A stretch of DNA of 40,738 bases from Vampirovibrionia bacterium (GTDB lineage Bacteria > Cyanobacteriota > Vampirovibrionia > LMEP-6097), in assembly GCA_049314535.1 (NCBI GenBank), contig JBMOEX010000002.1:1-40738 (forward strand). Direction: 5' to 3'. This document shows positions 10,078 through 34,430 of this stretch, piece by piece (position 1 is the stretch's first letter; each line of letters begins with the position of its first letter). The notes beneath the pieces were generated by a model, which was given only the letters and a program-made list of their open reading frames with translations, did no database searches and was not told where the DNA came from. Made by a program: the position numbers and the translations under genes.

Positions 10078-11514
10078 TTAATTAAGCCCTGCACCAAAAA
10101 CCGAAATCTTAGTGTTTAAAAGCTTCTTTATAACTTCATCCTTCAAATCCTCACCAATAAAGCCTTCCGCCTCTAAATCTTTTATCATCTTTAAAAATTT
10201 CTTACTGGTTTTTTTAGTAAGACTACTATCTATCAGAGTATTTTTTATCATCTCGATAGAACCTAGATCTATCGAATTAATTCCAGGTACAGCAGTACGA
10301 GTAACACTCAGCTTCTGCTTTTCACATATTTCTCTTAAAAATTTTACTTCAAGAGGAGTTACCACTGAAAAAGCATAACCCGACTTACCAGCTCTAGCAG
10401 TCCTACCAATACGATGCACATAATCCTCAGAATCCCGTGGCAGATTATAGTTTATAACAGCTTCTATATCATCTACATCTATACCTCGTGCTGCTATATC
10501 AGTAGCGATAAGAATCTGAGCCTCACCTTCTCTAAATTTACGCATTACAGCATCACGTTTATTCTGCTTTAAGTCACCATGTAAATTCGCTACACTGAAG
10601 CCCTCATCTTTAAGCGTATAGTAAAGTTTATCTACTTGCACCCTAGTATTACAAAAAATCATCACAGAACGCAGTCTGTATGAGAATAGTAAACGCTTAA
10701 TCAGTTCTATCTTTTGCTCAGCCTTAGTCTCGAAATATTTCTGATCTATTTTAATCTCTGTGACCTTCTTCTTAACTAAATTTAAAAATTCAGGTTTTTT
10801 CTGATGCTTATGAGCAAGCCTAACTATCTCCTGTGGCATAGTCGCAGAGAAGAGAGCTGTCTGTTCACGATTCTTAGTCGCATGTAAAATCGCTTCGATA
10901 TCATCTTTAAAACCCATTTCCAGCATCTTATCTGCTTCATCTAGAATCAAGGTTCTAACTGCTCTTAACTTTACAGTTCCTTGCTTAATATGATCTAATA
11001 GACGCCCAGGTGTAGCTACGATAATACGTGGCTGAGTTTTTAAAGTCTTAAGCTGTGCGTTCATACTCTGACCACCATATATAGCCATGCAAGAAACATC
11101 TTCACGGGACTGCTTGCAACCTTCAATTTCTGCGTTTTCGTCGTCCTCATGATCCTCATGTACCTTCAGTACACTGCGGTCATTCGTCCTTCTCAGCCTT
11201 GAACTTGTAAGTTTGCGAGCAGTCCTATGATATTTAAGCAGTAAATTAAAATGCTCGGCTACTTGAATAGTAAGCTCACGGGTAGGACATAGTACTAAAG
11301 CTTGAATATCTACTGTCTCTTTAATTATTCTCTCTATAACAGGTATCGCAAAAGCGGCTGTCTTACCAGTTCCAGTCTCAGCTTGAACTGTAATATCCTT
11401 CATTTTAAGCATTAATGGAATAGCTTTCTCTTGAACTGGTGTCATAGACTGGAACCCCATATCCCTTAATCCATTTAATGTAAGCTCAGAAAGATTTATT
11501 GCCTTGAAGTTCAT
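10078..11514 (-). CDS. DEAD-box ATP-dependent RNA helicase carrying an in-frame repeat-element insert
   Basis: Q-motif region, AETGTGKT (motif I), PTRELT (Ia), TPGRL (Ib), DEAD (II), SAT (III) and HRIGRTARAG (VI). About 40 extra residues lie between Ia and the GG doublet and are encoded by the repeat at 11107-11225. Confidence 0.9.
   Translation of the reverse strand: MNFKAINLSELTLNGLRDMGFQSMTPVQEKAIPLMLKMKDITVQAETGTGKTAAFAIPVIERIIKETVDIQALVLCPTRELTIQVAEHFNLLLKYHRTARKLTSSRLRRTNDRSVLKVHEDHEDDENAEIEGCKQSREDVSCMAIYGGQSMNAQLKTLKTQPRIIVATPGRLLDHIKQGTVKLRAVRTLILDEADKMLEMGFKDDIEAILHATKNREQTALFSATMPQEIVRLAHKHQKKPEFLNLVKKKVTEIKIDQKYFETKAEQKIELIKRLLFSYRLRSVMIFCNTRVQVDKLYYTLKDEGFSVANLHGDLKQNKRDAVMRKFREGEAQILIATDIAARGIDVDDIEAVINYNLPRDSEDYVHRIGRTARAGKSGYAFSVVTPLEVKFLREICEKQKLSVTRTAVPGINSIDLGSIEMIKNTLIDSSLTKKTSKKFLKMIKDLEAEGFIGEDLKDEVIKKLLNTKISVFGAGLN
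11107..11225 (-). repeat. full L+R palindromic repeat element (short form), in-frame inside the helicase CDS
   Basis: The core differs from the ribH copy at about 3-4 of about 87 positions by hand alignment. Arms are GGACTGCTTGCAA / TTTGCGAGCAGTCC. It encodes TARKLTSSRLRRTNDRSVLKVHEDHEDDENAEIEGCKQS. Confidence 0.85.
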
Positions 11515-11589
11515 TTAAACTATCATAGCTTGTTCTTTGCTTGGAGAAAAATAGAGCCCTGCTGTATCTCTATGTTAAAATCCTAAATG

Positions 11590-11680
11590 TTACTGGGGTG
11601 TTGAGAAATAACTTGACTGAGATCGTAGTAGGCTACGGGACCCTTATAACCTGATCTGGATAATGCCAGCGGAGGGAAAA
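11590..11680 (+). ncRNA. TPP (THI-box) riboswitch
   Basis: ACTGGGGTG...GACTGAGATCG...ACCCTTATAACCTGATCTGGATAATGCCAGCGGAGGGAA carries the conserved CUGAGA and ACCUGAUCUGGAUAAUGCCAGCG cores. It ends at the GGAGGG Shine-Dalgarno, 7 nt before the ATG at 11683. Confidence 0.85.
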
Positions 11681-11682
11681 TA

Positions 11683-12051
11683 ATGCTTGGACGAATTCTT
11701 AGTTTCTTGTCGCCGACTGTAAACTCGGCTCAACTTAATAAATTTGATGATCAACATGTTAATGCTGATATATGCTTGACTCCTATGGGTTCTTCGAATA
11801 CTTCAACTAGAGCCGAGATAAGAAAAGCTGTGGAAATAATGTCAAGAGCTGGTTTTGATGAAGTCAAACCACATGCTTTTGGAACTAATGTTTCAGGAAA
11901 ATGGTCTACTTTAGTAAGGTCTATAGAAAAAATTTCAGAGCAACTACTCCCTGAATGCCAAAGGCTACATTTTGATCTTAGAATTTCAGTAAGAGAGGAT
12001 AAACCTAAACATAGACAGACTATTGGACATACGATAGCAGCTGTGGCGTAA
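11683..12051 (+). CDS. YkoF/MTH1187-family (thiamine-binding, DUF77-like) protein
   Basis: It sits immediately downstream of the TPP riboswitch. The small protein has an ICLTPMG...AVEIMSRAGF...HAFGTNVSGKW pattern, like the V-x-P-x-G...G-T-x-x-E-G layout of the family. The assignment is partly by context. Confidence 0.55.
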   Translation: MLGRILSFLSPTVNSAQLNKFDDQHVNADICLTPMGSSNTSTRAEIRKAVEIMSRAGFDEVKPHAFGTNVSGKWSTLVRSIEKISEQLLPECQRLHFDLRISVREDKPKHRQTIGHTIAAVA

Positions 12052-12101
12052 CAGTCATTCATCCTCCTCAGCCTTGAACTTGCACCCTCGGCAACAGTGC
12101 C
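12052..12101 (-). repeat. solo R module of the repeat family, intergenic, starting 1 nt after the ykoF-like stop codon
   Basis: ACAGTCATTCATCCTCCTCAGCCTTGAACTTGCACCCTCGGCAACAGTGCC compared with canonical GCGGTCATTCGTCCTCCTCAGCCTTGAACTTGCACGTTCGCAAGCAGTGCC. Confidence 0.8.
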
Positions 12102-12142
12102 TTGAACAGTAGTTTCCAAGAAAGTAATATAATAAAGGCTGA

Positions 12143-12817
12143 ATGCTAAATTTAAAAAATAAATTAATCTATATCTTAGCTTTTAGCCTTTTTCTAGCTC
12201 TAAACACTACAGCAGCAGAGACTGTCACAGAGAAACTTTCAGCCACAGCCTCAAAAACCATTGATATCGCAGCAGAGCAGAAAAGAATACAGAATATGTT
12301 TAATGCTTTTATAACGACTATCGGTAAGTCACCTAAAGACTACACTATAGAAGTAGTCGAATCAAAAGATATAAATGCTTTCGCCACTTTAGGACGGCGC
12401 ATAGTGGTTAATACTGAATTAATTAAAACTGTAAATAGTGAATCAGCTTTAGCTATGGTTCTTGCCCATGAATTAGGTCACCTCGAAAGAAAACATTTAG
12501 TAAAAAGCCTTATAAGCCAGAACACTTCAGCCTTAATCAAGCACTATGTCTTTAAAGATAATCGTATCGTGAGTGCGATAAGCTATGCTGGTGGTCTGCA
12601 TTACAGCAGGGAGACAGAAAAAGACGCAGATATGTTCGGCATAAACTTAGTAAACAAGCTCTACTGTAATGTTCCAGGTAAGTTAGAGTTTTTTGAAAAG
12701 ATGTCTAAATTAGAGAATGCTGGGAAACTGCAAGAGTACTTTAGTACGCATCCGCTTTCTAGCAGTCGTATGGAATATCTTACTGCTGAGATTAAGGCTA
12801 AGGGGTGTCTTCTATAA
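12143..12817 (+). CDS. M48-family zinc metallopeptidase (exported)
   Basis: Signal-like N-terminus. HELGHLERKH is an HExxH motif, and a downstream EKDAD fits the third ligand region. Confidence 0.75.
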   Translation: MLNLKNKLIYILAFSLFLALNTTAAETVTEKLSATASKTIDIAAEQKRIQNMFNAFITTIGKSPKDYTIEVVESKDINAFATLGRRIVVNTELIKTVNSESALAMVLAHELGHLERKHLVKSLISQNTSALIKHYVFKDNRIVSAISYAGGLHYSRETEKDADMFGINLVNKLYCNVPGKLEFFEKMSKLENAGKLQEYFSTHPLSSSRMEYLTAEIKAKGCLL

Positions 12818-13462
12818 CCCCAAAACCTGCAAACAAGACAAAGCAAGCTCTTTACCCTTATCATCCTGAGTAACACTCGCTCTTGATAAAGCCTGCTCTT
12901 CAGTATTTACTGTAAGAACCCCATTAATAATCGGTTTCGAGTAATCTAACATCACGTCCATAATGCCTCTTGCTGACTCATTCGCCACTATCTCAAAATG
13001 ATAAGTTTCACCACGAATAATAGTTGCAAAGCAAATTATTGCATGATAACCAGTAAAACTATCATGAGACTGTTTCCAAACTACAATTTCTGCGTTTTCG
13101 TCGTCCTCATGATCCTCATGTACCTTCAGTACACTGCGGTCATTCGTCCTCCTCAGCCTTGAACTTGCACGCTTGGAAACAGTCTCATCATCTATATCAA
13201 GAATCTCATCCTCTAAATCCTTCTCAAAGAGCTTCTGGCAGGCATAAGGCATCTCAAAAGCACCAGGAGTGTAATAACTATCTATATTTTCAGCTCTAAT
13301 ACCAAATTTAATTAAAGTCTCTTTAGCTGAATCTGCCATTTCCTGGTTATAGCCTATATTCCAGTTAGCGATAACTAGAGCTATCCTGATATTCTCAAGA
13401 TAAAGGTTTTCAAGTATTTCTTCTAATTTAAATTCTGGTCTTGAGTGTCGCATATGATGCAT
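12812..13462 (-). CDS. ribH: 6,7-dimethyl-8-ribityllumazine synthase carrying an in-frame repeat-element insert
   Basis: IALVIANWN, PGAFEMPYA, IIRGETYHFEIVANE and NGVLTV match RibH. At 216 aa it is longer than the usual 155 or so, and the excess maps to the repeat at 13064-13188. Confidence 0.85.
   Translation of the reverse strand: MHHMRHSRPEFKLEEILENLYLENIRIALVIANWNIGYNQEMADSAKETLIKFGIRAENIDSYYTPGAFEMPYACQKLFEKDLEDEILDIDDETVSKRASSRLRRTNDRSVLKVHEDHEDDENAEIVVWKQSHDSFTGYHAIICFATIIRGETYHFEIVANESARGIMDVMLDYSKPIINGVLTVNTEEQALSRASVTQDDKGKELALSCLQVLGL
13064..13188 (-). repeat. full L+R palindromic repeat element (short form), in-frame inside ribH
   Basis: Perfect 16-nt inverted arms ATGAGACTGTTTCCAA / TTGGAAACAGTCTCAT flank the conserved core. 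It encodes ETVSKRASSRLRRTNDRSVLKVHEDHEDDENAEIVVWKQSH. Confidence 0.9.
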
Positions 13463-18095: not shown

Positions 18096-19424
18096 CTAAA
18101 AAAGGAGAGAAAAGGGATTCTTCACGTTCAAGAGAAGTTTTGGTTTTACAACTGGAGTATGACTAAAAGTTATAGCTTTTAAAAACTCTGCTGCCACAAG
18201 ATTTAAATCAAGCTCAGCTTGGTTTGAAAATACAGTAAATATGGTATCTCCAGCTTTTACTTCATCTCCCACTTTAGCTGAAAAAGTTACACCAGCTTTA
18301 TAATCGATACCATTATTTTTTGATTTATTAAGACCAAAAGCCAGTTCATTAGCTAGGCGGCCGACTTCCTCACAGGAAATATCTTTTATAAAAGCTTTTT
18401 CAGAAGCTTTAACAGCATATTCATACTTAGCCCTATAAGTATCTTTAAAAGCCTTTAAATCGCCACCCTGTGCAGAAATCCATTCATCAAATTTCACATA
18501 GGCTTTACCAGAGGCAATCGCAGAAATAACTTCAGCCCTATCTACTAAAAGGCTAGCCAGATCAATTACTAATTCATAAGTATCATTTTTTAAAGTACCC
18601 TCAAGAATTTCTATAGCTTCCATAATTTCAAGTGAATTACCAACAGCATAACCCAATGGCTGATCCATATTAGTAATCAGGACTTTAACATCCAATTTAA
18701 GTTCACGTGCAATAGATAAAATCTCATCCTTAAGAGCTTTAGCAGAATTTAGATCTTTCATAAAAGCTCCACTGCCGCATTTGAGATCGATTAGAATGAC
18801 ATCAGCTCCACCAGCTATTTTTTTCGACATAACGCTAGAAGCGATAAGTGGTATGGAATCTACAGTAGAAGTAAGATCTCTAAGAGCATAAAGTTTTTTA
18901 TCAGCAGGCGCAAAGTCAGTGGTTTGTCCAGAGATAGCGATACCAACTTCGGCTATCTGCTTTTCAAAAGCCTGAATATCAATATCTATCTTAAACCCTG
19001 GTATAGAAAGGAGTTTATCTACAGTTCCCCCCGTATGACCAAGAGCTCCACCTGAAAATTTAGATACCTTAAACCCTAAAGCTGCAAGCAAGGGAGAAAG
19101 AACAATAGTCACTTTATCACCAACCCCGCCAGTACTGTGCTTATCAACAAAGCCTCGTGTGCTAGCCTCTCTTTCACCACTAATGTCGCAGCCTTGATCG
19201 TGCCTTTTTAATGTGAGCACATGACCACTGTAAGCCATAGCTCTTGTCAGTTCAGCCGTTTCACGATGGTTTAAACCATTTAATCTCACCGCCATTAACC
19301 AAGCACTCAACTGAAAATCAGGGATAGAAGAAATATTATTAATCAGCCAATTAATCTCATCTAGACTGTGTTCCAGTCCATTCTTTTTCTTATTAATAAT
19401 TTCCACTACACTATATTTAGACAT
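18096..19424 (-). CDS. thymidine / pyrimidine-nucleoside phosphorylase
   Basis: DKHSTGGVGDK, the SGGALGHTGGT-type motif, and a C-terminal PYNP domain pattern. Confidence 0.9.
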   Translation of the reverse strand: MSKYSVVEIINKKKNGLEHSLDEINWLINNISSIPDFQLSAWLMAVRLNGLNHRETAELTRAMAYSGHVLTLKRHDQGCDISGEREASTRGFVDKHSTGGVGDKVTIVLSPLLAALGFKVSKFSGGALGHTGGTVDKLLSIPGFKIDIDIQAFEKQIAEVGIAISGQTTDFAPADKKLYALRDLTSTVDSIPLIASSVMSKKIAGGADVILIDLKCGSGAFMKDLNSAKALKDEILSIARELKLDVKVLITNMDQPLGYAVGNSLEIMEAIEILEGTLKNDTYELVIDLASLLVDRAEVISAIASGKAYVKFDEWISAQGGDLKAFKDTYRAKYEYAVKASEKAFIKDISCEEVGRLANELAFGLNKSKNNGIDYKAGVTFSAKVGDEVKAGDTIFTVFSNQAELDLNLVAAEFLKAITFSHTPVVKPKLLLNVKNPFSLLF

Positions 19425-19474
19425 TAAGAACCAACGAAAGAAGTTAGATAATTAAAACTCTGAAGCTCTTAATA

Positions 19475-20368
19475 TCAAGCTAAAGCAGCAGAGCCACCTA
19501 CGATCTCTGATATTTCCTGAGTAATAGCTGACTGACGAGCCTTATTATAAGAAAGGAGCAGCTTCTTAATAACTGCATCAGCATTATTACTAGCATTATT
19601 CATCGCGGTCATTCTTGAAGCTAGCTCACTAGTAGTGGCATCAAGAATATCCGTATAAACGGTGTTATTTAAATACATCGGAGTTAGAGTATCAATTAAA
19701 GCTCTAGCATTAGGTTCTAGAATCACATCACTAGACTGAACAGAATTAGCTGAGCTCTGCGGCTTTTCTACTGGAAGAAAGTTTTTAATTTCAGCCACAC
19801 TATTAACCATACTAATAAAGCGTGTAGAAATTACTTCTACTTTCTGAACTTCATTTGAAGTAAATTTCTCAGCAGCAAATGTACTAATTTCTTCCACTAA
19901 CTCTAAACTAGGTTTAGTTTGTAAGTTTATATATGATCGAAGAACCTCTACTCCTTGTTCTTTATACATGATCTTAGAGAAGGCATCAGTAGCTTTTCTG
20001 CCGATAGTAAGCAGAGATATTTTCAATCCCTCTGACTGTAAATCTTTAATTCTTTTTCTAGCAAGCTTAAGAATATTAGCATTATACGGGCCACACAGAC
20101 CTATATCCGAAGAAATTACAATCAATAAAACACTTTCAACCTTAGTAATTTTTTTCAGCAAAGGATTCTGGTCCAGCTCTTCCTGATCTAAACATCCCTG
20201 AAGTTGAGTGTAAAGCTGTTTAACACCATTTGCATAAGGTCTAGCAGCCTTAATTAACTTTTGCATTTTATTTACCTTCGCCGCAGCGACAAGTTTCATC
20301 GCAGCCGTAATCTTCTTGGTTTTTTTAGTGCTATTAATTTTAAGTTTAATTTCTTTAAGACTAGCCAT
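19475..20368 (-). CDS. atpG: F-type ATP synthase gamma subunit
   Basis: N-terminal MASLKEIKLKINSTKKTKKITAAMKLVAAAK and C-terminal LLLSYNKARQSAITQEISEIVGGSAA are the canonical gamma-subunit ends. Confidence 0.85.
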   Translation of the reverse strand: MASLKEIKLKINSTKKTKKITAAMKLVAAAKVNKMQKLIKAARPYANGVKQLYTQLQGCLDQEELDQNPLLKKITKVESVLLIVISSDIGLCGPYNANILKLARKRIKDLQSEGLKISLLTIGRKATDAFSKIMYKEQGVEVLRSYINLQTKPSLELVEEISTFAAEKFTSNEVQKVEVISTRFISMVNSVAEIKNFLPVEKPQSSANSVQSSDVILEPNARALIDTLTPMYLNNTVYTDILDATTSELASRMTAMNNASNNADAVIKKLLLSYNKARQSAITQEISEIVGGSAALA

Positions 20369-20473: not shown

Positions 20474-21394
20474 CTATGCTAACGCCCTTGATAAATAATT
20501 TTGATTAATCTTTAATAAATCAGTAGCAGACTCAAAATCTAATCCTTTCTTAAGATAAAGAACAGCCTGTTTAACTCTATTATTAGATAAAGCTAAAGCC
20601 TGCTCAGCTAAAGGCTTATCACAGTCCGTAATTAAGCTTACTAATCTAATAGCTCTCTCCTTGAGCTTTTTATTACTCACCTTAACATCTATCATTAGGT
20701 TACCAAAGGTTTTACCTAACTTAACCATAACTGAAGTACTTATAATATTAAGTACCATCTTCTGCGAGGTTCCAGCTTTAAGCCTAGTACTACCTGAAAG
20801 TATCTCAGGACCAGTATCTAAAAAAATAGAATAATCCGCATATTTAATAATCTCAGCTCCATGATTATTGGTCAGTACCGCTGTCTTAGCACCATATTCT
20901 CTCGCTGCTTTTAAAGCTCCTATAACATAAGCTGCTCCACCGCTAGCCGAAATACCGATAACCACATCATGGCACTGCTCACGAACTCCAATTTCTGCGT
21001 TTTCGCTACTCTTTAAATTCATCTTCGCTAAAACATCAGCATAACCAGCAGCTTCATCATCTTCGGCTCCTTCTACTGCATACTGGATGGCTCTTTCACC
21101 ACCAGCGATAATAGCTTTCACTAAATCTGGCTCAGTAGAAAAAGTAGGCGGACATTCTACTGCATCTAAAACACCAAGACGCCCACTAGTACCAGCTCCC
21201 ACATAAATCAATGATCCACCCTGTCTTAAAGATTCACTAACAACTTCGATGACCATTCCGATATCTTCTTTAACATCAGCAATGGCTTTTAAAATCTGTT
21301 GGTGATCATCCACAAAGAGCTGAACTAAATCAGAGGAGTTTAACTGATCTAAATTTTCAGAAAGTGGGTTTACCGATTCTGTTATGGGCAGCAT
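20474..21394 (-). CDS. murQ: N-acetylmuramic acid 6-phosphate etherase carrying a partial repeat insert
   Basis: SIS-domain motifs YVGAGTSGRLGVLDA, ECPPTF, VIGISASG and LSGSTRLKAGTSQK. About 12 extra residues (ENAEIGVREQCH) lie directly before DVVIGISASG. Confidence 0.85.
   Translation of the reverse strand: MLPITESVNPLSENLDQLNSSDLVQLFVDDHQQILKAIADVKEDIGMVIEVVSESLRQGGSLIYVGAGTSGRLGVLDAVECPPTFSTEPDLVKAIIAGGERAIQYAVEGAEDDEAAGYADVLAKMNLKSSENAEIGVREQCHDVVIGISASGGAAYVIGALKAAREYGAKTAVLTNNHGAEIIKYADYSIFLDTGPEILSGSTRLKAGTSQKMVLNIISTSVMVKLGKTFGNLMIDVKVSNKKLKERAIRLVSLITDCDKPLAEQALALSNNRVKQAVLYLKKGLDFESATDLLKINQNYLSRALA
20971..21005 (-). repeat. truncated L module of the repeat family, in-frame inside murQ
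   Basis: GGCACTGCTCACGAACTCCAATTTCTGCGTTTTCG matches the first 35 nt of the L module in the ABC ATPase gene with 1 mismatch. Confidence 0.8.
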
Positions 21395-22608
21395 TATTTA
21401 CACTCTCCTTGATACAGCAGACAAGACACCTTATGGCACTGCTCGCGAACTCCAATTTCTGCGTTTTCGTCGTCCTCATGATCCTCATGTAAGCTTGATA
21501 AATCAAGCTTGTATTTCTGCTTGCTCGGATATGAGCCACTTACATGGCTCGCATCCTCGGCATCGCTAGAAATTACCCGTACACTGCGGTCATTCGTCCT
21601 CCTCAGCCTTGAACTTGCACGTTCGCAAGCAGTGCCATTTTGGGGCTGCTCACGAGCTTCAATTTCTGCGTTTTCGTCGTCCTCATGATCCTCTAAAAGT
21701 GGATCATTGATCTCACAAGCCTCAAAGCATTCAGGACATCTAGTGCGGAAAGCACAACCACTCGGTATTTTAGTTGCACTGGGTATTTCACCATACAAAA
21801 AAGTACGCTCCCTATCACGCTTAGTCGGGTCTGGGAGTGGGGCTGAGCTTAAAAGAGCTTTAGTGTAAGGATGCAAAGGATTACGAAAGAGATCATCTTT
21901 AGCTGCTATTTCAACTATTTTTCCTAGATACATAACAGCTACTCTATCTGCGATAAACTTAGCCACGGCTAAATCATGAGTAATAAAAAGAAAACTAATA
22001 CCCAGCTCCCGCTTAAGCTTCAGCATTAAATTCAATATAGTCCACTGAATCGATACATCTAAAGCACTCACAGCTTCATCTGCAATAATCAATTTAGGAT
22101 TACAAGCTATCGCTCTAGCTATACAGACTCGCTGATTTTGTCCACCTGAACACTGATGTGGATATTTAGAAGCAAGCTCAGCATCAAGTTCAACAAGCTG
22201 CATAAGCTCAAATACTCTTTCTTTAATATTCTTTTCTTTATTTATTCTCAAGGGTTCAGCAATAGAATCAAAAATTTTAAAGCGAGGATCTAAGCTACTA
22301 AAAGGATTCTGGAAAATCATCTGTAAACTTTTTCTTTTATCTAAAAGCTTAGATCCATGAAGATGTAAAAAATCTTCACCTTCAAAATTAATCTCACCAG
22401 AGTCTGGCTCAGTGAGACGAGTTATAAGTCTTGCTAAAGTGGATTTACCGCAGCCAGATTCGCCTACCAAAACTAATATCTCAGCTTTATCAATAGATAA
22501 ATCCACTCCCCTCACGACTTGAAGAAGCTCTTTAGTCGCTAAGCCCCATCCCCCATCTTTTGAGATAGAAAAAGATTTAGATAAATTTTTAACCTCTAAT
22601 AAAGCCAC
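21394..22608 (-). CDS. ABC transporter ATP-binding protein, oligopeptide/dipeptide (OppF/DppF) type, with a composite repeat insert of about 85 aa near the C-terminus
   Basis: Walker A GESGCGKST, signature SGGQNQR, Walker B IIADEA, and the Opp-type C-terminal Cys motif CAFRTRCPECFEAC. The family-typical end H-x-V-x-C (HKVSCLLY) reappears after the insert. GTG start. The stop codon overlaps the murQ ATG (TAATG). Confidence 0.85.
   Translation of the reverse strand: MALLEVKNLSKSFSISKDGGWGLATKELLQVVRGVDLSIDKAEILVLVGESGCGKSTLARLITRLTEPDSGEINFEGEDFLHLHGSKLLDKRKSLQMIFQNPFSSLDPRFKIFDSIAEPLRINKEKNIKERVFELMQLVELDAELASKYPHQCSGGQNQRVCIARAIACNPKLIIADEAVSALDVSIQWTILNLMLKLKRELGISFLFITHDLAVAKFIADRVAVMYLGKIVEIAAKDDLFRNPLHPYTKALLSSAPLPDPTKRDRERTFLYGEIPSATKIPSGCAFRTRCPECFEACEINDPLLEDHEDDENAEIEAREQPQNGTACERASSRLRRTNDRSVRVISSDAEDASHVSGSYPSKQKYKLDLSSLHEDHEDDENAEIGVREQCHKVSCLLYQGECK
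21435..21636 (-). repeat. full L+R repeat element, long form (88-nt internal segment replaces the 7-nt joint)
   Basis: Arms GGCACTGCTCGCGAAC / GTTCGCAAGCAGTGCC (15/16). The ACTG...CAGT anchor span is 196 nt, against 115 nt in both short copies, a difference of 81 nt or 27 codons. Confidence 0.85.
21642..21693 (-). repeat. solo L module, 5 nt from the long element, in-frame in the same CDS
   Basis: GGGGCTGCTCACGAGCTTCAATTTCTGCGTTTTCGTCGTCCTCATGATCCTC. It encodes DHEDDENAEIEAREQP. Confidence 0.85.
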
Positions 22609-28486: not shown

Positions 28487-29932
28487 ATGAATTCAAGTTA
28501 TAATGTTAAGGCAATGAATTCTAAAGCAGTTGACCTAAATTTACTATCTACTTTCCATCCTAGAGAGACTTTTGCACAAAGATCAGCATTAGTTCAGGCT
28601 TTCAAGTTTTTTATTCTAGCTGTAGTTTGGTTATCGATTATCTTCGTCGTAGCAGCTGGTGCTGGACTAACTTTCGCATGGAAAGCACCTTTCGTATTTA
28701 ACGAACTGATGCCGACTTGGTTTCCTGCTATAGATAAACAGATATTTAAAAACCTAGCTGATATTCACGCATATCTAGCTCCTACTGTGGTAGTAGCGAC
28801 TATTATTCCCGTAAATGCACTGTTCATGGTGCTTTGTGAAAGGAAATTCCTATCTTTACTCACTGTAAGAATCGGACCAGATGCCGTTGGACCAAATGGT
28901 GGACTGCAAACACTAGCTGATGCTTTAAAGCTTCTTTTTAAAGAAGATACTGTACCTAAGAATTCAGATCCTATTCTGTTCTTCTTAGCTCCAGCATTAT
29001 TCTTCGCCCCTTCCATGGTGGTTTTCTTACCTTTACTAGCTGTAGCAGCCAATCGCCTAGGCGGTTTCATCTATGCCGATCTTGATATTAGCTTGATATT
29101 CATATTAGGTTTTCTATCACTTGGCACTATGTCACTAGTTATGGCTGGCTGGGCATCTAATAATAAATATTCACTCATGGGTGGTCTAAGAGCCGCTTCT
29201 CAAGCTATTAGCTATGAAATCCCATTAGTACTCGCCATTATCTCTGTCATTATGCTCTCTGGCTCAGTGAATCTTTTCGAAATATCTGAAGCTCAAGCTG
29301 GTGGAATACTTAACTGGAACCTTCTGGGTAACGGGGAACTACCAAGAATCTTAAATCTGTTTGCTAGCACTAATGGTAATTTCTTTGATGGTTTCGTGAC
29401 TTTAGTTTACATAACACTGTGCGTTAGCTTATTTTTAATCTTCATTACCGCTTCCACGGCAGAGGTTAACAGAATTCCTTTCGACATCCCAGAAGCTGAG
29501 TCAGAGTTGGTTTCAGGGTTTAACACTGAGTTTAGCGGCATGAAATTCGCATTATTTTTCTTAGCTGAATATACTAATCTGTTTATCGCTTCAGCTATAG
29601 CTTCTATATTATTTCTTGGTGGTTCACATCTACCGATTAGCATAGAAGCAGAACAGGCGCTTTACTCAGCTCTTACGAATCTAAATATTAGCCTCCCTGT
29701 TATTGGCACCTTTAATGGTATGTTCGAAGGCTTAAATTTCGTCTGGGTAATAACATCAGTAACTCTCTTAGTGAAGATCTATCTTATGTTCCTTGTCGCT
29801 ATCTGGGTTAGAGCTACTCTACCAAGACTGAGACAGGATCAATTAATGGAGTTTGGTTGGAAATACCTTATTCCTCTTACGCTTGCCATTCTGTTCCTTA
29901 TGGCTATAATTTTGGAGTATATTAAATCATGA
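28487..29932 (+). CDS. nuoH: NADH-quinone oxidoreductase subunit H (NuoH/NdhA) with an N-terminal extension of about 90 aa
   Basis: ERKFLSLLTVRIGPDAVGPNGGLQTLADALKLLFKED, SNNKYSLMGGLRAASQAISYEIP, and RIPFDIPEAESELVSGFNTEFSG. The start may lie further downstream. Confidence 0.85.
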   Translation: MNSSYNVKAMNSKAVDLNLLSTFHPRETFAQRSALVQAFKFFILAVVWLSIIFVVAAGAGLTFAWKAPFVFNELMPTWFPAIDKQIFKNLADIHAYLAPTVVVATIIPVNALFMVLCERKFLSLLTVRIGPDAVGPNGGLQTLADALKLLFKEDTVPKNSDPILFFLAPALFFAPSMVVFLPLLAVAANRLGGFIYADLDISLIFILGFLSLGTMSLVMAGWASNNKYSLMGGLRAASQAISYEIPLVLAIISVIMLSGSVNLFEISEAQAGGILNWNLLGNGELPRILNLFASTNGNFFDGFVTLVYITLCVSLFLIFITASTAEVNRIPFDIPEAESELVSGFNTEFSGMKFALFFLAEYTNLFIASAIASILFLGGSHLPISIEAEQALYSALTNLNISLPVIGTFNGMFEGLNFVWVITSVTLLVKIYLMFLVAIWVRATLPRLRQDQLMEFGWKYLIPLTLAILFLMAIILEYIKS

Positions 29933-30435
29933 ATTTCATAAGTACCTTAAAATCATTCACTAAATTCCCTCTTGGAATCTATAACATTCTTCTAGGTATG
30001 TTTACAGTAGTGAAACACACTACTAGAGATCCGATTACCTCTGACTATCCTAATAAGATGCCAGAACTCTATCCTAGATCAAGACACAGGCTAGCTTTAA
30101 ACGTAGACCCCATTACAGGTGAGCATCTATGTATCGCCTGCAAGCAATGCGAAAGAGTCTGCCCTGATGCTTGTATTTCAGTTATCCCGCATACCGAGGT
30201 GAAAGCGAAATCTACACAGTTTTATATAGATCACGGTCTATGTATGTTCTGTGGTCTATGTACAGAAGTCTGTCCTACTGACTGTATTATTAACACCGTA
30301 GATTTTGAGATGTCAACAGAAACAAGAGAAGATCTAATCTATGATATTAAAAAATTAACCCTCACTCAAGAGCAGTCTAGAGAATACTTTAAGATGAAAG
30401 GGTATACACCTAAACCTAAGAAAGCTGCTGCTTAA
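29929..30435 (+). CDS. nuoI: NADH-quinone oxidoreductase subunit I (2x[4Fe-4S])
   Basis: Two ferredoxin motifs, CIACKQCERVCP and CMFCGLCTEVCP. There is a 4-nt overlap with nuoH. Confidence 0.85.
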   Translation: MNFISTLKSFTKFPLGIYNILLGMFTVVKHTTRDPITSDYPNKMPELYPRSRHRLALNVDPITGEHLCIACKQCERVCPDACISVIPHTEVKAKSTQFYIDHGLCMFCGLCTEVCPTDCIINTVDFEMSTETREDLIYDIKKLTLTQEQSREYFKMKGYTPKPKKAAA

Positions 30436-30436
30436 G

Positions 30437-30481
30437 GGGACACGACGAAAACGCAGAAATTCGAGCTTGTGAGCAGTCCCC
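30437..30481 (+). repeat. solo L module of the repeat family in inverted orientation, filling the gap between two convergent stop codons
   Basis: The reverse complement GGGGACTGCTCACAAGCTCGAATTTCTGCGTTTTCGTCGT matches the L module. The flanks GCTTAAGGGGAC / GTCCCCTAAGC are complementary (one bulge) and include both stop codons. Confidence 0.8.
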
Positions 30482-31596
30482 TAAGCGAAACTGTACGTTA
30501 GGCTGTTGTGTTTAATCTTCCCAGCTTGGTATAATTCTTGCCTTAATGTATCGTAAAGATTACTTGGGGTGGGGCTTTGAGAGATTTCTTGTAATTTAGA
30601 TTTAACTAAATGAAAAGCATTATCTAATTTTACTTTCGATGCAAGTAAATGAGAAACTAAATCACTGCATACCACTTTAGCTGGTATTTTTTCTTTTACT
30701 TTATTATGCTTCAGCTGAGTTTCATTTGTAGCTATAGCTTTTAAATTATTCTCAGAGTTATTGAAAGGTGAAGAAAAAGCAGGAAGCCTAATATTTAAAA
30801 GACTGTTACGTAAACTATCTAAGTGCTGCTTTGGCAACTTATCTGTTAAATTACGTAAATAGCTTTCTATGGATGGTCCTAATTTTTCATTTCCTAAAAT
30901 TTGCACAGCTCTTGAAAAGAGCGTAGGGACATAATAATGAAGATCCTTGTTTTCTTTTAATTCAGTTAAAAAACTTGTCGTATTTTCGACATGCCCAACT
31001 TTAAAAAACTCAAAATCAGTATGGTAAGCAACAGCTCGTTTACTTGCTTTCTGAATATCCTCTATCTTCAGTTCACCATTAAATGGACTTAAATTTTCTT
31101 TACTCGGCTTCTGTGAGCGAAGATCTATGTGAATAAATAATAATCCCTCTGGATTATCTGAAGTAGGGGTGATTCTCACAACTAAACCTGTATGAGTAGG
31201 GCTCAATGCCATACTTAAATACTCCTCAACATTTAAACCCTGCTTTTGAAATTGTGCCTTTAACTCATCTGGTAAAGGATTAGATCTAAGAGCTTTTTGG
31301 ATAGCATTAGGTATCATGTATGGTCCAGCCTGGTGAGGATCTGAAAAAAATACAGCAGTATCCCCCACTTTAGGTAACAGCTGATTTAATTTATTAGATA
31401 AAGCCTTAGCATGCTCAGAGGCACTGACATCTGCATGTAAACTTTTCAGCATCTCCGGAGAGGCTTTTCTCGTCGTAATACCTAGAAAAAAATTCTGAGC
31501 AGGGGCTGGTAATACCTGATAAATTTTAGCGAGACTCGACTTCGCTAAATTCATAACAGGATCAAAAAATTTATTAACAGTTAAGCTAATAGACAT
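30481..31596 (-). CDS. hypothetical protein
   Basis: A 371-aa ORF with no signal peptide or recognised motif. A perfect TATAAT (minus sense, plus-strand coordinates 31629-31634) lies upstream. Confidence 0.5.
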   Translation of the reverse strand: MSISLTVNKFFDPVMNLAKSSLAKIYQVLPAPAQNFFLGITTRKASPEMLKSLHADVSASEHAKALSNKLNQLLPKVGDTAVFFSDPHQAGPYMIPNAIQKALRSNPLPDELKAQFQKQGLNVEEYLSMALSPTHTGLVVRITPTSDNPEGLLFIHIDLRSQKPSKENLSPFNGELKIEDIQKASKRAVAYHTDFEFFKVGHVENTTSFLTELKENKDLHYYVPTLFSRAVQILGNEKLGPSIESYLRNLTDKLPKQHLDSLRNSLLNIRLPAFSSPFNNSENNLKAIATNETQLKHNKVKEKIPAKVVCSDLVSHLLASKVKLDNAFHLVKSKLQEISQSPTPSNLYDTLRQELYQAGKIKHNSLTYSFA

Positions 31597-31697: not shown

Positions 31698-34430
31698 TCA
31701 CGCTCTATTCGCGTACGTCTCTAAGGTCTTGTTTAGAAAATCGCGTATTGTTTGATTATTAGCAGCCTGCAGCGCAGTGCCAAAATAAGAACTCCCCTGG
31801 TTCACAAATTCTACAACTTTATCAGATGGAAGATTCTCAATTATCAGCTCTACGGCTCTAATATTATCGTTATTAGCAGCTTGCATAAGCAGCGTAGAAT
31901 TATTTACAAATGTCCCTGTCAAAGCTTTTACTAATTCATTAGGTAACAGATTCTTAATTATCAGCTCCAGTACTTCGGTATGACCTTTCTGAATATCATA
32001 GATCAGCGCCGTATAACCAAGATCATTCTTCTCAGTCAAAGCGTTTACTAATTTATCGGCTGGAAGATTTTTAATTATCTGCTTTATTACTCCTCCCCTA
32101 GCAGCAATCATCAGCACCGTATCATTATGACGAAGACTATTCTTCTCAGTCACAAGCTCTACTACTTGAGCTGCTGGAAGATTTTTAATTAGCTGATCCA
32201 TTAATTCAGTAATACTTTTTCTAGCAGCAATCATGAGTACAGTATAACCATCAACATCCTTCTCCTTCAAAAATTCTACTAATTTACTGGGTGGAAGCTT
32301 TTCAATTAGCGGCTTTATGAATCCACTATAATTTTTCTGAACAAGAATATATAAGAGGTCACTGAGATAATTCCTATTCTTAGCCAAAACTTCTACTAAT
32401 TTATCAGGTGAAAGATCAATTAGCTGCTTTATTACTTTAAAATGACTTTTGTTATAAGCAATGTTCGGGACGGTAGAATGATAAATACTCTTCTCTGTAA
32501 AAGCTTCTACTAATTTATCAGGTGGAAGATTCTCAATTAGCTGATCCATTAATTCAATATGACCTTCGCTAAGAGCAAAGATGAAGATATTTTCACCTTC
32601 TGGTCTCATCCTTAAATTAGATTTATCTCCATCTCTATCTCTAAAGATTTGAGCCTCCAAGCGACTGAGGCTAGACTTTAACTCACTTTCTTTATATGCA
32701 TCTCCAAATATCTGAGTGAGATCTTTTTCGCGGTCTCGTGTTTTTAGTATTTTTTCTATTCTTGGATCTCCATTTCGACCAAAGTTCTTAATTCCTTTCA
32801 CAATTTCATAGATAAAGAATAAATCGTCCTCTGTAAAGTCTATATTCTTTTGAAATTTACCATAGAGTCTCTCTAGAGCCTTAGTATCTTTATCTGCTCT
32901 TAGCCATTTTTCAAGATTCGGGAATACAGGCTTACCATCTGCATCTCTGCTTTGAAGTTTTTCTTGTAAAATACTGATCCCATTATCGCCTGTAGCATTA
33001 GCAATAAATCCATCTAGATTTTGCCTTGCAGCGATACCACGAATTTCTGATATTTCATCACCATTCATCGCAATAGCTAATCTTGGTAAGACAGGGTTTT
33101 TATTTTTATCTTGAGAGAAGTAAATATAGATATCACCTTGTTTTAAATAACGATCTGCAGTGTCTAAACCCTGCAAGCACCATCCAGTATCCCAATACTT
33201 AATACTATCCCTAAGTTCCTTTGGTTCACTGTCTTTAGGAAACTTTCGCCATTCTCCATCAGTAGTACTTAAATCTATCTTGCTTGTTGTTTGATTCTGC
33301 AAGAATTTATACAGACTACTAAAATGCAGCGTGACAGTACCATTACCTTTAGTAATGTCAATATTATCTTTTAAAAACTTATACAGATTAGGATTTTCTT
33401 GCTCATATTTTTTTTGAATTTCACCCATGATTTTGGTATGAGAATGAATTTCACAGAGTTTTACGATATCATTAATTTCGCCGACTAGAGCTGGATTAAG
33501 GACTGGGAAATCTTTAATTGAATTTGGTGATGATCTATTTTGAAAATTAACTTTAGTGTTTCTTGGATCATTTAATATTAGTGAATAGAGAATAACTTTA
33601 TCTAATTGACCATCAGAGAAGAGCATATTGAGCTTATCTTTAAAGTCATCATCTAGCTCAGGGTTCCTTTGAGTAGTTTGGATAATTTCAGCTTTAATTT
33701 CATCTGGAGCTATCTCACTACGAGCATGTCTACTGATAATGTCTTGAAATTTTTCAAAAGAAGCTGTATCTATATCGGTGTGTGATGCTAGAGAATCTGG
33801 TTTTTCTAATATTCCTTCAAGAACAGATAAGTTCGGCTTATTATCTAGTATTCGTACTTCTAGATCAGCTACTGCATTAAATATCCAGTGTCTCGTCTTA
33901 TTATTTAAGTAAGTAACCCCACCATCTGGATCGTTTAAATAATTAAACCAGTCTGTTAACGAAGCTCTTAGATCAGCTTTTTTATTTTCAAACACTTTTA
34001 GCCTGTCTAGAGTGGCTCCTGGATTGATGTCTCGAGCCAGTTCTTGAAGATGATTAAAATCTGAATCTGTGAGTTCTTGTGGTAAAAAACGCTCTATATA
34101 CTCTATCTTCTTCTCTGCTGAAGAATCTGTAAAGAATTCAGGAGCCTTAGCCAGAATGAATTCTTGAGCTAATTCTAATTTTTTAGAATATTTCGCATTA
34201 GTGATTAAAGATATCCAATCAACAGTGCTTCCATTATTAGTAAAGTCCTTTTCCTCTTCATTTTCTACTATGAGGCGAGTCAAATAGCCTAAAAGTGAAC
34301 TAGAGTCAGGCTGAGATTCAGCAGGGGTGCTAATTTGCTGTACTAGGGCAGTAGCTAAACCTTTGACTCGTGTTTGAATAGGCCTCGGTAATTGAAGCTG
34401 TAAGGTCGAAGGCTTATCTTGAATGACCAC
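31698..34430 (-). CDS. large repeat protein: unknown N-terminal region plus about 8 C-terminal ankyrin-like repeats of about 37 aa
   Basis: 910 aa with a GTG start. The C-terminal third repeats the pattern G-x-T-x-LM-x-AA...(I/L)I(K/E)NLP-x-DKLVE-x-L-x-EKN. The central motif WDTGWCLQGL...GDIYIYFS...EISEIRGIAARQN is unassigned. Confidence 0.65.
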   Translation of the reverse strand: MVIQDKPSTLQLQLPRPIQTRVKGLATALVQQISTPAESQPDSSSLLGYLTRLIVENEEEKDFTNNGSTVDWISLITNAKYSKKLELAQEFILAKAPEFFTDSSAEKKIEYIERFLPQELTDSDFNHLQELARDINPGATLDRLKVFENKKADLRASLTDWFNYLNDPDGGVTYLNNKTRHWIFNAVADLEVRILDNKPNLSVLEGILEKPDSLASHTDIDTASFEKFQDIISRHARSEIAPDEIKAEIIQTTQRNPELDDDFKDKLNMLFSDGQLDKVILYSLILNDPRNTKVNFQNRSSPNSIKDFPVLNPALVGEINDIVKLCEIHSHTKIMGEIQKKYEQENPNLYKFLKDNIDITKGNGTVTLHFSSLYKFLQNQTTSKIDLSTTDGEWRKFPKDSEPKELRDSIKYWDTGWCLQGLDTADRYLKQGDIYIYFSQDKNKNPVLPRLAIAMNGDEISEIRGIAARQNLDGFIANATGDNGISILQEKLQSRDADGKPVFPNLEKWLRADKDTKALERLYGKFQKNIDFTEDDLFFIYEIVKGIKNFGRNGDPRIEKILKTRDREKDLTQIFGDAYKESELKSSLSRLEAQIFRDRDGDKSNLRMRPEGENIFIFALSEGHIELMDQLIENLPPDKLVEAFTEKSIYHSTVPNIAYNKSHFKVIKQLIDLSPDKLVEVLAKNRNYLSDLLYILVQKNYSGFIKPLIEKLPPSKLVEFLKEKDVDGYTVLMIAARKSITELMDQLIKNLPAAQVVELVTEKNSLRHNDTVLMIAARGGVIKQIIKNLPADKLVNALTEKNDLGYTALIYDIQKGHTEVLELIIKNLLPNELVKALTGTFVNNSTLLMQAANNDNIRAVELIIENLPSDKVVEFVNQGSSYFGTALQAANNQTIRDFLNKTLETYANRA
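31718..32590 (-). repeat. intragenic tandem coding repeats (period about 110 nt)
   Basis: For example, GGTGGAAGATTCTCAATTAGCTGATCCATTAATTCA at 32521 and GCTGGAAGATTTTTAATTAGCTGATCCATTAATTCA at 32171. NLP-x-DKLVE units recur about 8 times in the protein. Confidence 0.6.

Follow-up and report, generated by a model that had tools for sequence, protein, structure and literature searches.

A putative palindromic miniature transposable element read in frame within an OppF-type ATPase gene of a Vampirovibrionia bacterium

The window that we analysed, a 40,738-nt stretch of a Vampirovibrionia bacterium genome (assembly GCA_049314535.1, contig JBMOEX010000002.1, positions 1 to 40,738), carries on its minus strand (21394–22608) a gene for a 404-aa ATP-binding cassette (ABC) ATPase of the OppF/DppF type, the 3′ part of which contains a composite of palindromic repeat DNA. 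The gene was assigned from the list of open reading frames (ORFs), from Pfam and NCBIfam and from superposition of an AlphaFold model: its Pfam domains are ABC_tran (PF00005, residues 33–180) followed by oligo_HPY (PF08352, residues 232–298), and the top NCBIfam models, OppF and DppF, align to residues 2–316. The 86 residues 3′ of CAFRTRCPECFEACEINDPLLE lie outside domain-model coverage, and the frame then closes with HKVSCLLYQGECK, the end of the protein reading ...CEINDPLLE-DHEDDENAEIEAREQPQ-NGTACERASSRLRRTNDRSVRV-ISSDAEDASHVSGSYPSKQKYKLDLSSL-HEDHEDDENAEIGVREQC-HKVSCLLYQGECK before the stop. The repeat DNA itself occupies window positions 21435–21693, 259 nt that correspond in frame to residues 306–391 and one base of H392, and the inserted peptide contains TNDRSVR, VISSDAEDASHVSGSYPSK and QCHKVSCLLYQGECK. 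The stop codon TAA (21394–21396) and the murQ ATG (21392–21394) overlap by a single base, giving the sequence TAATG. An earlier note, made from the letters of the sequence, had described here a solo L module, a short spacer and a long-form full element in the reading direction, amounting to some 255–260 nt and about 85 residues carried in frame, together with the TAATG overlap; its coordinates, module order and overlap were all correct.

Along the plus strand, the composite is preceded by the pentanucleotide CTTAT (21430–21434), which the family-wide geometry of target-site duplications (TSDs) marks as the left TSD copy, now one of a decayed pair, of the element running from L1 to R. The L1 module (21435–21486) comprises a 21-nt arm, GGCACTGCTCGCGAACTCCAA (21435–21455), and a 31-nt L core (21456–21486) with 0 mismatches to the family consensus, and on the minus strand it reads HEDHEDDENAEIGVREQC. 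It is followed by a long-form centre of 96 nt (21487–21582), which holds an X module and two small hairpins, encodes ISSDAEDASHVSGSYPSKQKYKLDLSSL and exceeds the 15-nt centre of the short form by 81 nt. The R module (21583–21636), encoding NGTACERASSRLRRTNDRSV, consists of a 32-nt R core (21583–21614) and a 22-nt arm (21615–21636) that ends in GTTCGCAAGCAGTGCC and is complementary to the L1 arm; the predicted fold of 21420–21705 pairs the two arms with each other (−103.4 kcal/mol, z −5.9). A spacer, ATTTT (21637–21641), sits where the right TSD copy is expected, and separates the R arm from L2 (21642–21693), a truncated second copy that encodes EDHEDDENAEIEAREQPQ and ends in GATCCTC. L2 retains an inner arm and the full L core, with a degenerate outer arm (arm 21642–21662, core 21663–21693).

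A palindromic repeat family with a single open frame

A 20-mer from the L core, AATTTCTGCGTTTTCGTCGT, was found at more than 103 loci among the matches listed for a species-representative genome collection, and all but one of these (a chance match in Oceanobacillus) fall within five metagenome-assembled genomes (MAGs): Candidatus Caenarcaniphilales RE-15aug16-7, Candidatus Melainabacteria LMEP_6097, Cyanobacteria bacterium REEB446, samp_4445_VAMB_679 and one labelled Proteobacteria. MAG WB4_1_1465 (RFQS01; loci L010, L013, L024 and L042) is labelled Proteobacteria yet bears the same repeat family, including X modules that are 100% identical, and that label is probably wrong. A profile search with nhmmer over about 770 kb (731 kb of MAG loci, in 8-kb stretches around element copies, plus the window) recovered at least 236 element copies, all copy numbers given here being lower bounds. 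The family profile is 121 nt long, with arms of about 16–22 nt at each end and a core of about 85 nt. Neither the element nor its peptide matched anything in Rfam, Pfam, NCBIfam, a plasmid set or a phage set, nothing was found by Rfam over the OppF locus at E ≤ 1, and the literature on miniature transposable elements with inverted repeats (MITEs) in Melainabacteria yielded a general survey of insertion sequences only.

The arms and the interior of the element behave very differently. In an alignment of 75 short-form copies, the interior has a mean pairwise identity of 96.7%, as against only 66% for the terminal 16–22 nt, and every pair of the terminal 16-pair helix shows changes on both sides. 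Pairing is kept in 93% of arm cells (91% for the terminal helix over the 75 copies), compared with 78% in column shuffles and 27–39% when the partner strand is slid, and double-sided changes occupy 240 cells where shuffles give 68 ± 8.5. The central 5-bp hairpin covaries as well. At least four arm subfamilies can be distinguished (GGGCGTGTAGC, GGCACTGTTGC, GGGACTGCTCGC and GAGACCGCTGCAC), and the termini are G-rich (GGG/GGC...CCC/GCC). The notion that the arms derive from target DNA was ruled out by an empty DEAD-box helicase site, which shows that the arms arrive with the element. We also observed that the L and R cores (21456–21486 and 21583–21614 in the OppF copy, and likewise in all copies) share a direct rather than inverted motif, CTGCG-N4-6-TTCGTC-N0-3-CCTC, which may reflect an origin by internal duplication or two binding sites of like orientation.

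Insertion is accompanied by a TSD of exactly 5 bp. With element boundaries fixed by their distance from the cores, as A/T flanks extend the hairpin and blur automatic boundaries, 26 of 106 copies have identical 5-bp flanks and another 23 agree at 4/5 positions (0.9% and 5.8% expected), and no signal for a flanking duplication of 4, 6 or 7 bp was present among the same 106 copies. A length of 121 nt is found in 83 copies, and adding the 5-bp TSD makes 126 nt (42 codons). Most long forms measure 190, 199 or 202 nt, each a multiple of three once the TSD is included; the 202-nt form is the commonest and adds 207 nt, or 69 codons. Being shorter than 300 bp and without a transposase gene of its own, bounded by terminal inverted repeats (TIRs) and a fixed TSD, and dispersed in copies with filled and empty sites, the element appears to have the generic features of a bacterial MITE.

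Stops interrupt five of the element's six frames, and the sixth reads RTARKLTSSRLRRTNDRSVLKVHEDHEDDENAEIEGCKQS, a 40-aa peptide that is first basic, SSRLRRTNDRSV, and then acidic, HEDHEDDENAEI. With only one stop-free frame available, a copy that lands in the corresponding orientation and phase is one that would be translated as extra peptide. About half of the copies (112/236) lie inside long ORFs, a copy being counted as genic where the open frame exceeds the element by 450 nt or more, and 106 of these 112 use the single open orientation and phase. The genes that host in-frame copies include those for RecJ, the GMP synthase GuaA, RadA, an M17 aminopeptidase, a cytochrome c assembly protein and a second ABC ATPase, and within the window those for a DEAD-box helicase, RibH, MurQ and the OppF-type ATPase. 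This frame bias argues that the insert is read through and appears in the product as additional residues. Taken together, we consider it very probable that the 259 nt at the OppF locus represent one and a half copies of a non-autonomous palindromic MITE native to the Caenarcaniphilales/Melainabacteria and translated in frame within OppF.

Alleles and composites at the OppF site

Relatives of the OppF gene carry a series of alleles at this site. Proteins of 330 aa (P0047, P0079 and P0088, labelled Candidatus Caenarcaniphilales), which end in ...PILKDLGDEAKVHCVSCLLYK, and of 336–337 aa (P0056 and P0040) are without the insert, and two of 349 aa (P0004 and P0005) have a longer linker. The 351-aa P0003, the closest in its core at 94% identity, holds a decayed remnant, PISVSLLHNDAVFDDRESGLIEQN; the 371-aa P0002, recovered from two independent samples, has a shortened L2; and the 378-aa P0001 reads L2′-R′-L1′, minus the extra 27 residues. 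The relatives among which the earlier note had advised looking for empty or single-copy alleles thus supply empty, decayed and shorter ones, and none of them has the frameshifted pseudogene that it had named as evidence to the contrary, the six closest alleles all being intact. At the DNA level, the site is empty in L105 and occupied in two orthologues, L103 (a JBJTTW MAG, gene 92% identical; copy at 5587–5718) and L104 (the JGI contig of P0001, 94%; copy at about 10900–11110), which share the outer boundaries and the L1-R-L2 order of the window composite (full copy at 21435–21636), again without the 81 extra nt. The right boundary, GATCCTC followed by TAAAAG, is common to all three. In their cores, the window and L103 copies match one another and the consensus throughout (0/94 differences) at a host-gene divergence of 7.8%; those in L104 have 8/94 mismatches, a number that rules out a strict nucleotide constraint on the cores.

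Composites of the kind seen in OppF recur throughout the family. A Hamming scan for three cores, in which shuffled cores gave 0 hits, returned 70 L-R, 47 solo L, 14 L-R-L, 12 solo R and 8 L-X-R architectures, 4 of the L-X-R-L type (the window OppF copy, L013, L042 and L071) and 5 longer arrays, with no arrays of mixed orientation in that scan. The X stretch of the window (21487–21578) recurs with 100% identity in L071 and L042; the L024 copy matches it over 90 nt, and those of L090 and L016 are 97% identical, all five being at unrelated sites. The module takes the place of the loop of the central hairpin and is a recurrent variant of the element, by no means confined to OppF. Across the 18 sites with L-R-L or L-X-R-L composites, the R arm is succeeded by the 5-bp duplicate, and there the second L starts at once. 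The inner arm of the second L agrees with that of its own first L at 6.8/9 positions, against 5.2/9 for unrelated pairs (p < 0.0002; 0/5000 permutations; 25 adjacent L pairs), its outer seven bases resemble the first L no more than expected by chance, and its far end is cut at varying points from one composite to another. In the window, L1 and L2 share 7/9 inner-arm positions and are of the same arm type. The simplest reading is that composites usually arise when the element is duplicated in tandem and the second copy then loses its distal half; that the duplication was local and partial is indicated because first and second L of one composite usually have the same arm variant. The scrambled outer arm of L2 would then reflect the instability of a perfect palindrome formed by an R arm and an L arm around a 5-nt loop. 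A minority of composites, with arms of different subfamilies, represent adjacent independent insertions. The earlier note had left the choice between a hotspot and local amplification; on this evidence the latter, in the form of partial duplication, is the usual case, and independent insertion next to a resident copy accounts for the minority.

Applied to the OppF gene, the reading as a translated MITE runs as follows. One copy would have landed in the linker that leads from the CxxxxxCxxxxxxC motif to the HxVxC tail, and either a partial tandem duplication or the arrival of another copy would have followed. Deletion of the far half of that second copy would have left L2, and in the lineage of the window the complete copy would be the long form with the X module.

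Several observations weigh against this account. The TSD of the OppF copy is decayed, with CTTAT and ATTTT matching at 2/5 positions. The pattern of variable termini and a conserved interior is the reverse of that in ordinary MITEs mobilised by a transposase, and no transposase or autonomous partner turned up, none having been searched for. Since the loci were collected through an exact L-core match, both L counts and L-core conservation are biased upward. The X-containing OppF allele is known from this window alone, and translation of the insert and assembly of the Fe–S cluster, discussed below, are predictions. Finally, the orthologous full copies bear three arm types, GGCACTGCTCGCGAAC in the window, GGCACGGCTGCCGAAC in L103 and GGGCGTGTAGCGGAAC in L104, each of them self-complementary, whereas L2 and both outer junctions are common to all three, so that a single insertion followed by simple vertical descent is inadequate. 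This turnover, which vertical descent leaves unexplained, suggests that in some lineages the resident OppF copy may have been replaced, either by re-insertion or by conversion from other copies.

The same arm types would follow if the site were a hotspot that received two independent insertions, an old element leaving L2 and a separate L1-X-R landing alongside it with no local duplication. The first and second L arms do belong to different subfamilies in the L-R-L composites L002, L033, L042 and L049, and in L104 the L1 and R arms are of the GGGCGTGTAGC type and L2 is of the GGCACTGCTCGC type. The full copies of the window, L103 and L104 differ in arm type around a shared L2 and shared outer boundaries, and the consensus-perfect cores of the window and L103, despite the divergence of their host genes, fit a renewal after the lineages split. 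Against this, the second L of the 25 adjacent pairs shares its inner arm with its own first L far above chance, as do L1 and L2 of the window in being of one type, and the same left boundary (CACCTTAT followed by GG) in three lineages would demand repeated insertion at one nucleotide. We therefore hold two separate insertions at OppF to be possible, though the less likely origin of this composite.

A further proposal goes beyond the translated MITE and treats the repeat as a distinct kind of mobile element built for coding sequence. Its whole-codon length with the TSD (126 or 207 nt) and its stop-free frame would be adaptations to that end, its ends, whose arms covary freely, would be recognised by their hairpin and not by their sequence, its invariant interior would present the two direct CTGCG..TTCGTC..CCTC motifs to a mobilising enzyme, and the swapped arms and consensus-perfect cores at OppF would be a sign of ongoing replacement at occupied sites. 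We regard this as rather unlikely. A neighbouring possibility, an integron attC-like site, was rejected: the inner GAAC/GTTC is only loosely like the core sites, and attC makes no TSD.

It could also be that the X module (21487–21582) was introduced by misassembly and that the true allele is a short L-R-L like that of the relatives, the assembler having passed through a long-form copy of a different locus. X is bounded by cores identical to dozens of other copies and is itself 100% identical to sequence elsewhere; the exact 404-aa product, searched with either start residue, is on record nowhere else; neither the X-bearing OppF junction nor the L2/OppF junction was matched in metagenome pattern scans; and all four related OppF alleles are without X. 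The L-X-R-L layout nevertheless exists at three unrelated sites in other assemblies (L013, L042 and L071). The arms around X are mutually complementary and the frame is kept, which would also be expected of a chimera and so counts for little. On balance an assembly artefact seems improbable.

The native tail and the iron–sulphur domain

The Opp-type ATPases to which this protein belongs can carry a cluster at the C-terminus, and the insert falls within the predicted binding site. E. coli DppF binds its C-terminal [4Fe-4S] cluster through C293, C299, C306 and C323, and Cys-to-Ser substitution or oxidation disassembles the transporter (PMC12136057). The first three counterparts in the window protein are C285, C291 and C298 (codons within 21715–21756, minus strand; GCAFRTRCPECFEAC), with the spacing C-x5-C-x6-C, and the fourth is C396, which lies in the tail HKVSCLLYQGECK (21397–21435, minus strand) and is predicted as a ligand by alignment to relatives and to E. 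coli OppF and DppF. The four residues align with those of DppF and, in the case of the tail, with the ...HSVSC end of OppF, and all are invariant or nearly so in alignments of relatives. The insert comes between predicted ligands 3 and 4, which are consequently 98 residues apart, compared with 17 in E. coli DppF and 21 in relatives with an empty site. The earlier note had taken HKVSC for the native, family-typical C-terminus, and we agree, because H392, V394, C396, L397 and L398 are invariant in an alignment of 11 orthologous sequences, including the insert-free 330-aa proteins, and because the E. coli OppF C-terminus, ...RHSVSCL, aligns with the tail of the window protein. Its expectation that PLLE and HKVSC would be contiguous elsewhere held only in part: PxLK and HxVSC stand close together in the empty alleles, separated by an 8-residue linker (DLGDEAKV).

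An AlphaFold model of the 404-aa protein, built on a 37-sequence alignment, has pLDDT values of at least 90 over most of its length, below 50 for residues 320–387 and a mean of 93 for the block 391–400. It superposes on E. coli OppF (8z21_D), the best structural match, with a target-normalised TM score of 0.90 and a root-mean-square deviation of 1.5 Å. The insert is thus predicted to be disordered, with the tail repacked in the model. From the model, a surface loop between ligands 3 and 4 would host the insert and the tail could still fold back to complete the cluster site, which would account for the insert being tolerated. Between insert-bearing lineages, the ratio of non-synonymous to synonymous substitution rates (dN/dS) in the host gene is 0.05–0.08 at dS 0.25–0.40; we conclude from this low ratio that purifying selection acts on the gene and that it is no pseudogene.

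The domain order and four-cysteine pattern are those of the Opp/Dpp ATPases with a [4Fe-4S] cluster, such as E. coli DppBCDF and OppBCDF (8z1v/8z21), M. tuberculosis OppABCD (8j5q) and the T. tengcongensis protein 4fwi (PMC12136057), from which the window protein differs in the 98-residue spacing of ligands 3 and 4 and in having no permease or binding-protein genes nearby. The neighbours of the OppF gene in the window, L104, L105 and L107 are proC, murQ and atpG, with no permease within about 10 kb, and murQ, encoding N-acetylmuramic acid 6-phosphate etherase, lies directly 3′ in every relative. This linkage is a hint that the protein may serve the recycling of the cell wall and not belong to a classical Opp operon.

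Purifying selection on the host gene raises the question of whether the inserted peptide has itself been recruited, as a charged, histidine-rich regulatory or metal-binding loop beside the Fe–S cluster that is kept by selection. The insert does persist across lineages separated by the dS values given above, the peptide is strongly charged (HEDHEDDE, RLRRTNDR), and its position adjoins the cluster ligands. We nevertheless see no sign of selection on the peptide, because the cores are equally conserved inside and outside genes (1.0 and 1.1 mismatches per 63 nt), with no concentration of that conservation at third codon positions, and because the closest core relative, P0003, has a decayed, half-deleted copy, P0002 in turn having a truncated L2. 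The same peptide occurs within many unrelated enzymes, AlphaFold assigns no fold to it, and the insert peptides matched no family in Pfam or NCBIfam at E ≤ 10, inteins included. Recruitment to a function in OppF therefore strikes us as very improbable. That the insert is instead removed before or during translation, as an intron, intein or bypassed element might be, leaving the native protein, is a suggestion prompted by its very stable hairpin that we dismiss, since a removed element would need no stop-free frame whereas 106 of 112 genic copies use the open one and lengths with the TSD are multiples of three, both of which point to read-through, and since neither Rfam at E ≤ 1 nor the intein and protein families gave a match.

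Other copies in the window and related elements

The element is present elsewhere in the window in several states. Two canonical short elements of L plus R lie on the plus strand and in frame with their minus-strand host genes, one at 11106–11226 in the DEAD-box helicase gene (10078–11514), a site that is empty in L074, and one at 13066–13186 in ribH (12812–13462). RibH carries the 42-aa element in the window, whereas its L104 counterpart (19227–19796) is left with a 16-aa solo L of the same arm; the end-points of this deletion share the microhomology GAT(G/C)ATGAG. In murQ (20474–21394, minus strand), which starts within the OppF stop, there is a solo-L remnant of 14 aa, SSENAEIGVREQCH, at 20965–21010, where L107 (3616–4662) has a full L′-R′-L′ composite and L105 (6011–6892) has nothing, which suggests that an L-R-L can collapse to a solo L by recombination between its two L copies. 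An internally deleted 45-nt copy (30437–30486, minus strand) sits between convergent genes, after a Fer4 ORF (29929–30435); it keeps the outer arm ends and the L core, is flanked by TTAAG and CTAAG, and forms a short hairpin at the expected position of a terminator. An R-only fragment (12044–12103, plus strand) lies at the 3′ end of an ORF for a thiamine-binding protein (11683–12051) and may supply its present C-terminus and stop; the fragment overlaps the stop codon of this ORF, and the element has stops in the sense orientation. A thiamine pyrophosphate riboswitch (RF00059, 67.9 bits; 11584–11696, plus strand) lies upstream of the same ORF and overlaps its start. A further repeat in the window is found within a 910-aa ORF (31698–34430, minus strand), where 31778–32600 consists of at least seven tandem units of 114–117 nt (about 39 aa) that are 60–80% identical.

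Among known elements, the closest parallel is with the Rickettsia palindromic elements (RPEs), which summaries of Ogata et al. (2000) describe as being about 105–150 bp long, with a long stem-loop, TIRs and one conserved open frame, and as fused in frame in many conserved housekeeping genes as well as present in intergenic DNA, with at least one product translated and active (PMC2229807, PMC10969869). According to the same summaries, the host proteins of RPEs keep their function and the inserts act as selfish DNA at tolerated surface positions (PMC2229807, PMC10969869). The element described here resembles RPEs in its size, palindromic stem-loop, TIRs, single open frame and in-frame copies in conserved genes, and would likewise be selfish DNA that its host proteins tolerate. 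It differs in having no Pfam, NCBIfam or Rfam match, a distinction drawn from these family searches rather than from DNA comparison, and in its host phylum, which is Melainabacteria and not Rickettsiales, all true hits coming from Caenarcaniphilales/Melainabacteria MAGs. It is further set apart by an exact 5-bp TSD, which the table of Delihas lists as unknown for RPEs, by the length of exactly 42 codons for element plus TSD, by arms that covary around an invariant interior, and by the frequency of L-R-L partial tandems and of the 81-nt long-form module. Read-through of a coding palindromic element is already known from Rickettsia, and the present family is a new example rather than a new principle.

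Other MITEs that bear ORFs, namely ERIC, the 107-bp Correia element, YPAL/RU-2 and the Anabaena MITEs, are likewise small, with TIRs, TSDs, stable hairpin transcripts and occasional in-frame fusions (PMC2229807, PMC10969869). These elements are found for the most part between genes and usually have TA at their termini, whereas about half of the copies reported here are in long ORFs and the termini are G-rich. A 5-bp TSD is also found in the Tn3-derived miniature elements (TIMEs), which have conserved inverted repeats of about 38 bp (GGGG...TAAG). The TSD length agrees and the ends begin with GGG/GGC, but in our element only about 16–22 nt are complementary and these vary between subfamilies.

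The presence of this family has practical consequences: in these MAGs, gene callers and domain models will meet proteins that look split or too large, and the invariant cores can lead assemblers to make false joins. For the Fe–S domain, the OppF allele amounts to a natural experiment in which about 77 extra residues stand between the third and fourth predicted ligands of a site whose cluster, in E. coli, holds the Dpp transporter together. More broadly, the translated MITE would extend the phenomenon of Rickettsia-type selfish palindromes in housekeeping proteins to a free-standing lineage of non-photosynthetic relatives of the cyanobacteria, with a cleaner anatomy in the form of an exact 5-bp duplication and a whole-codon length.

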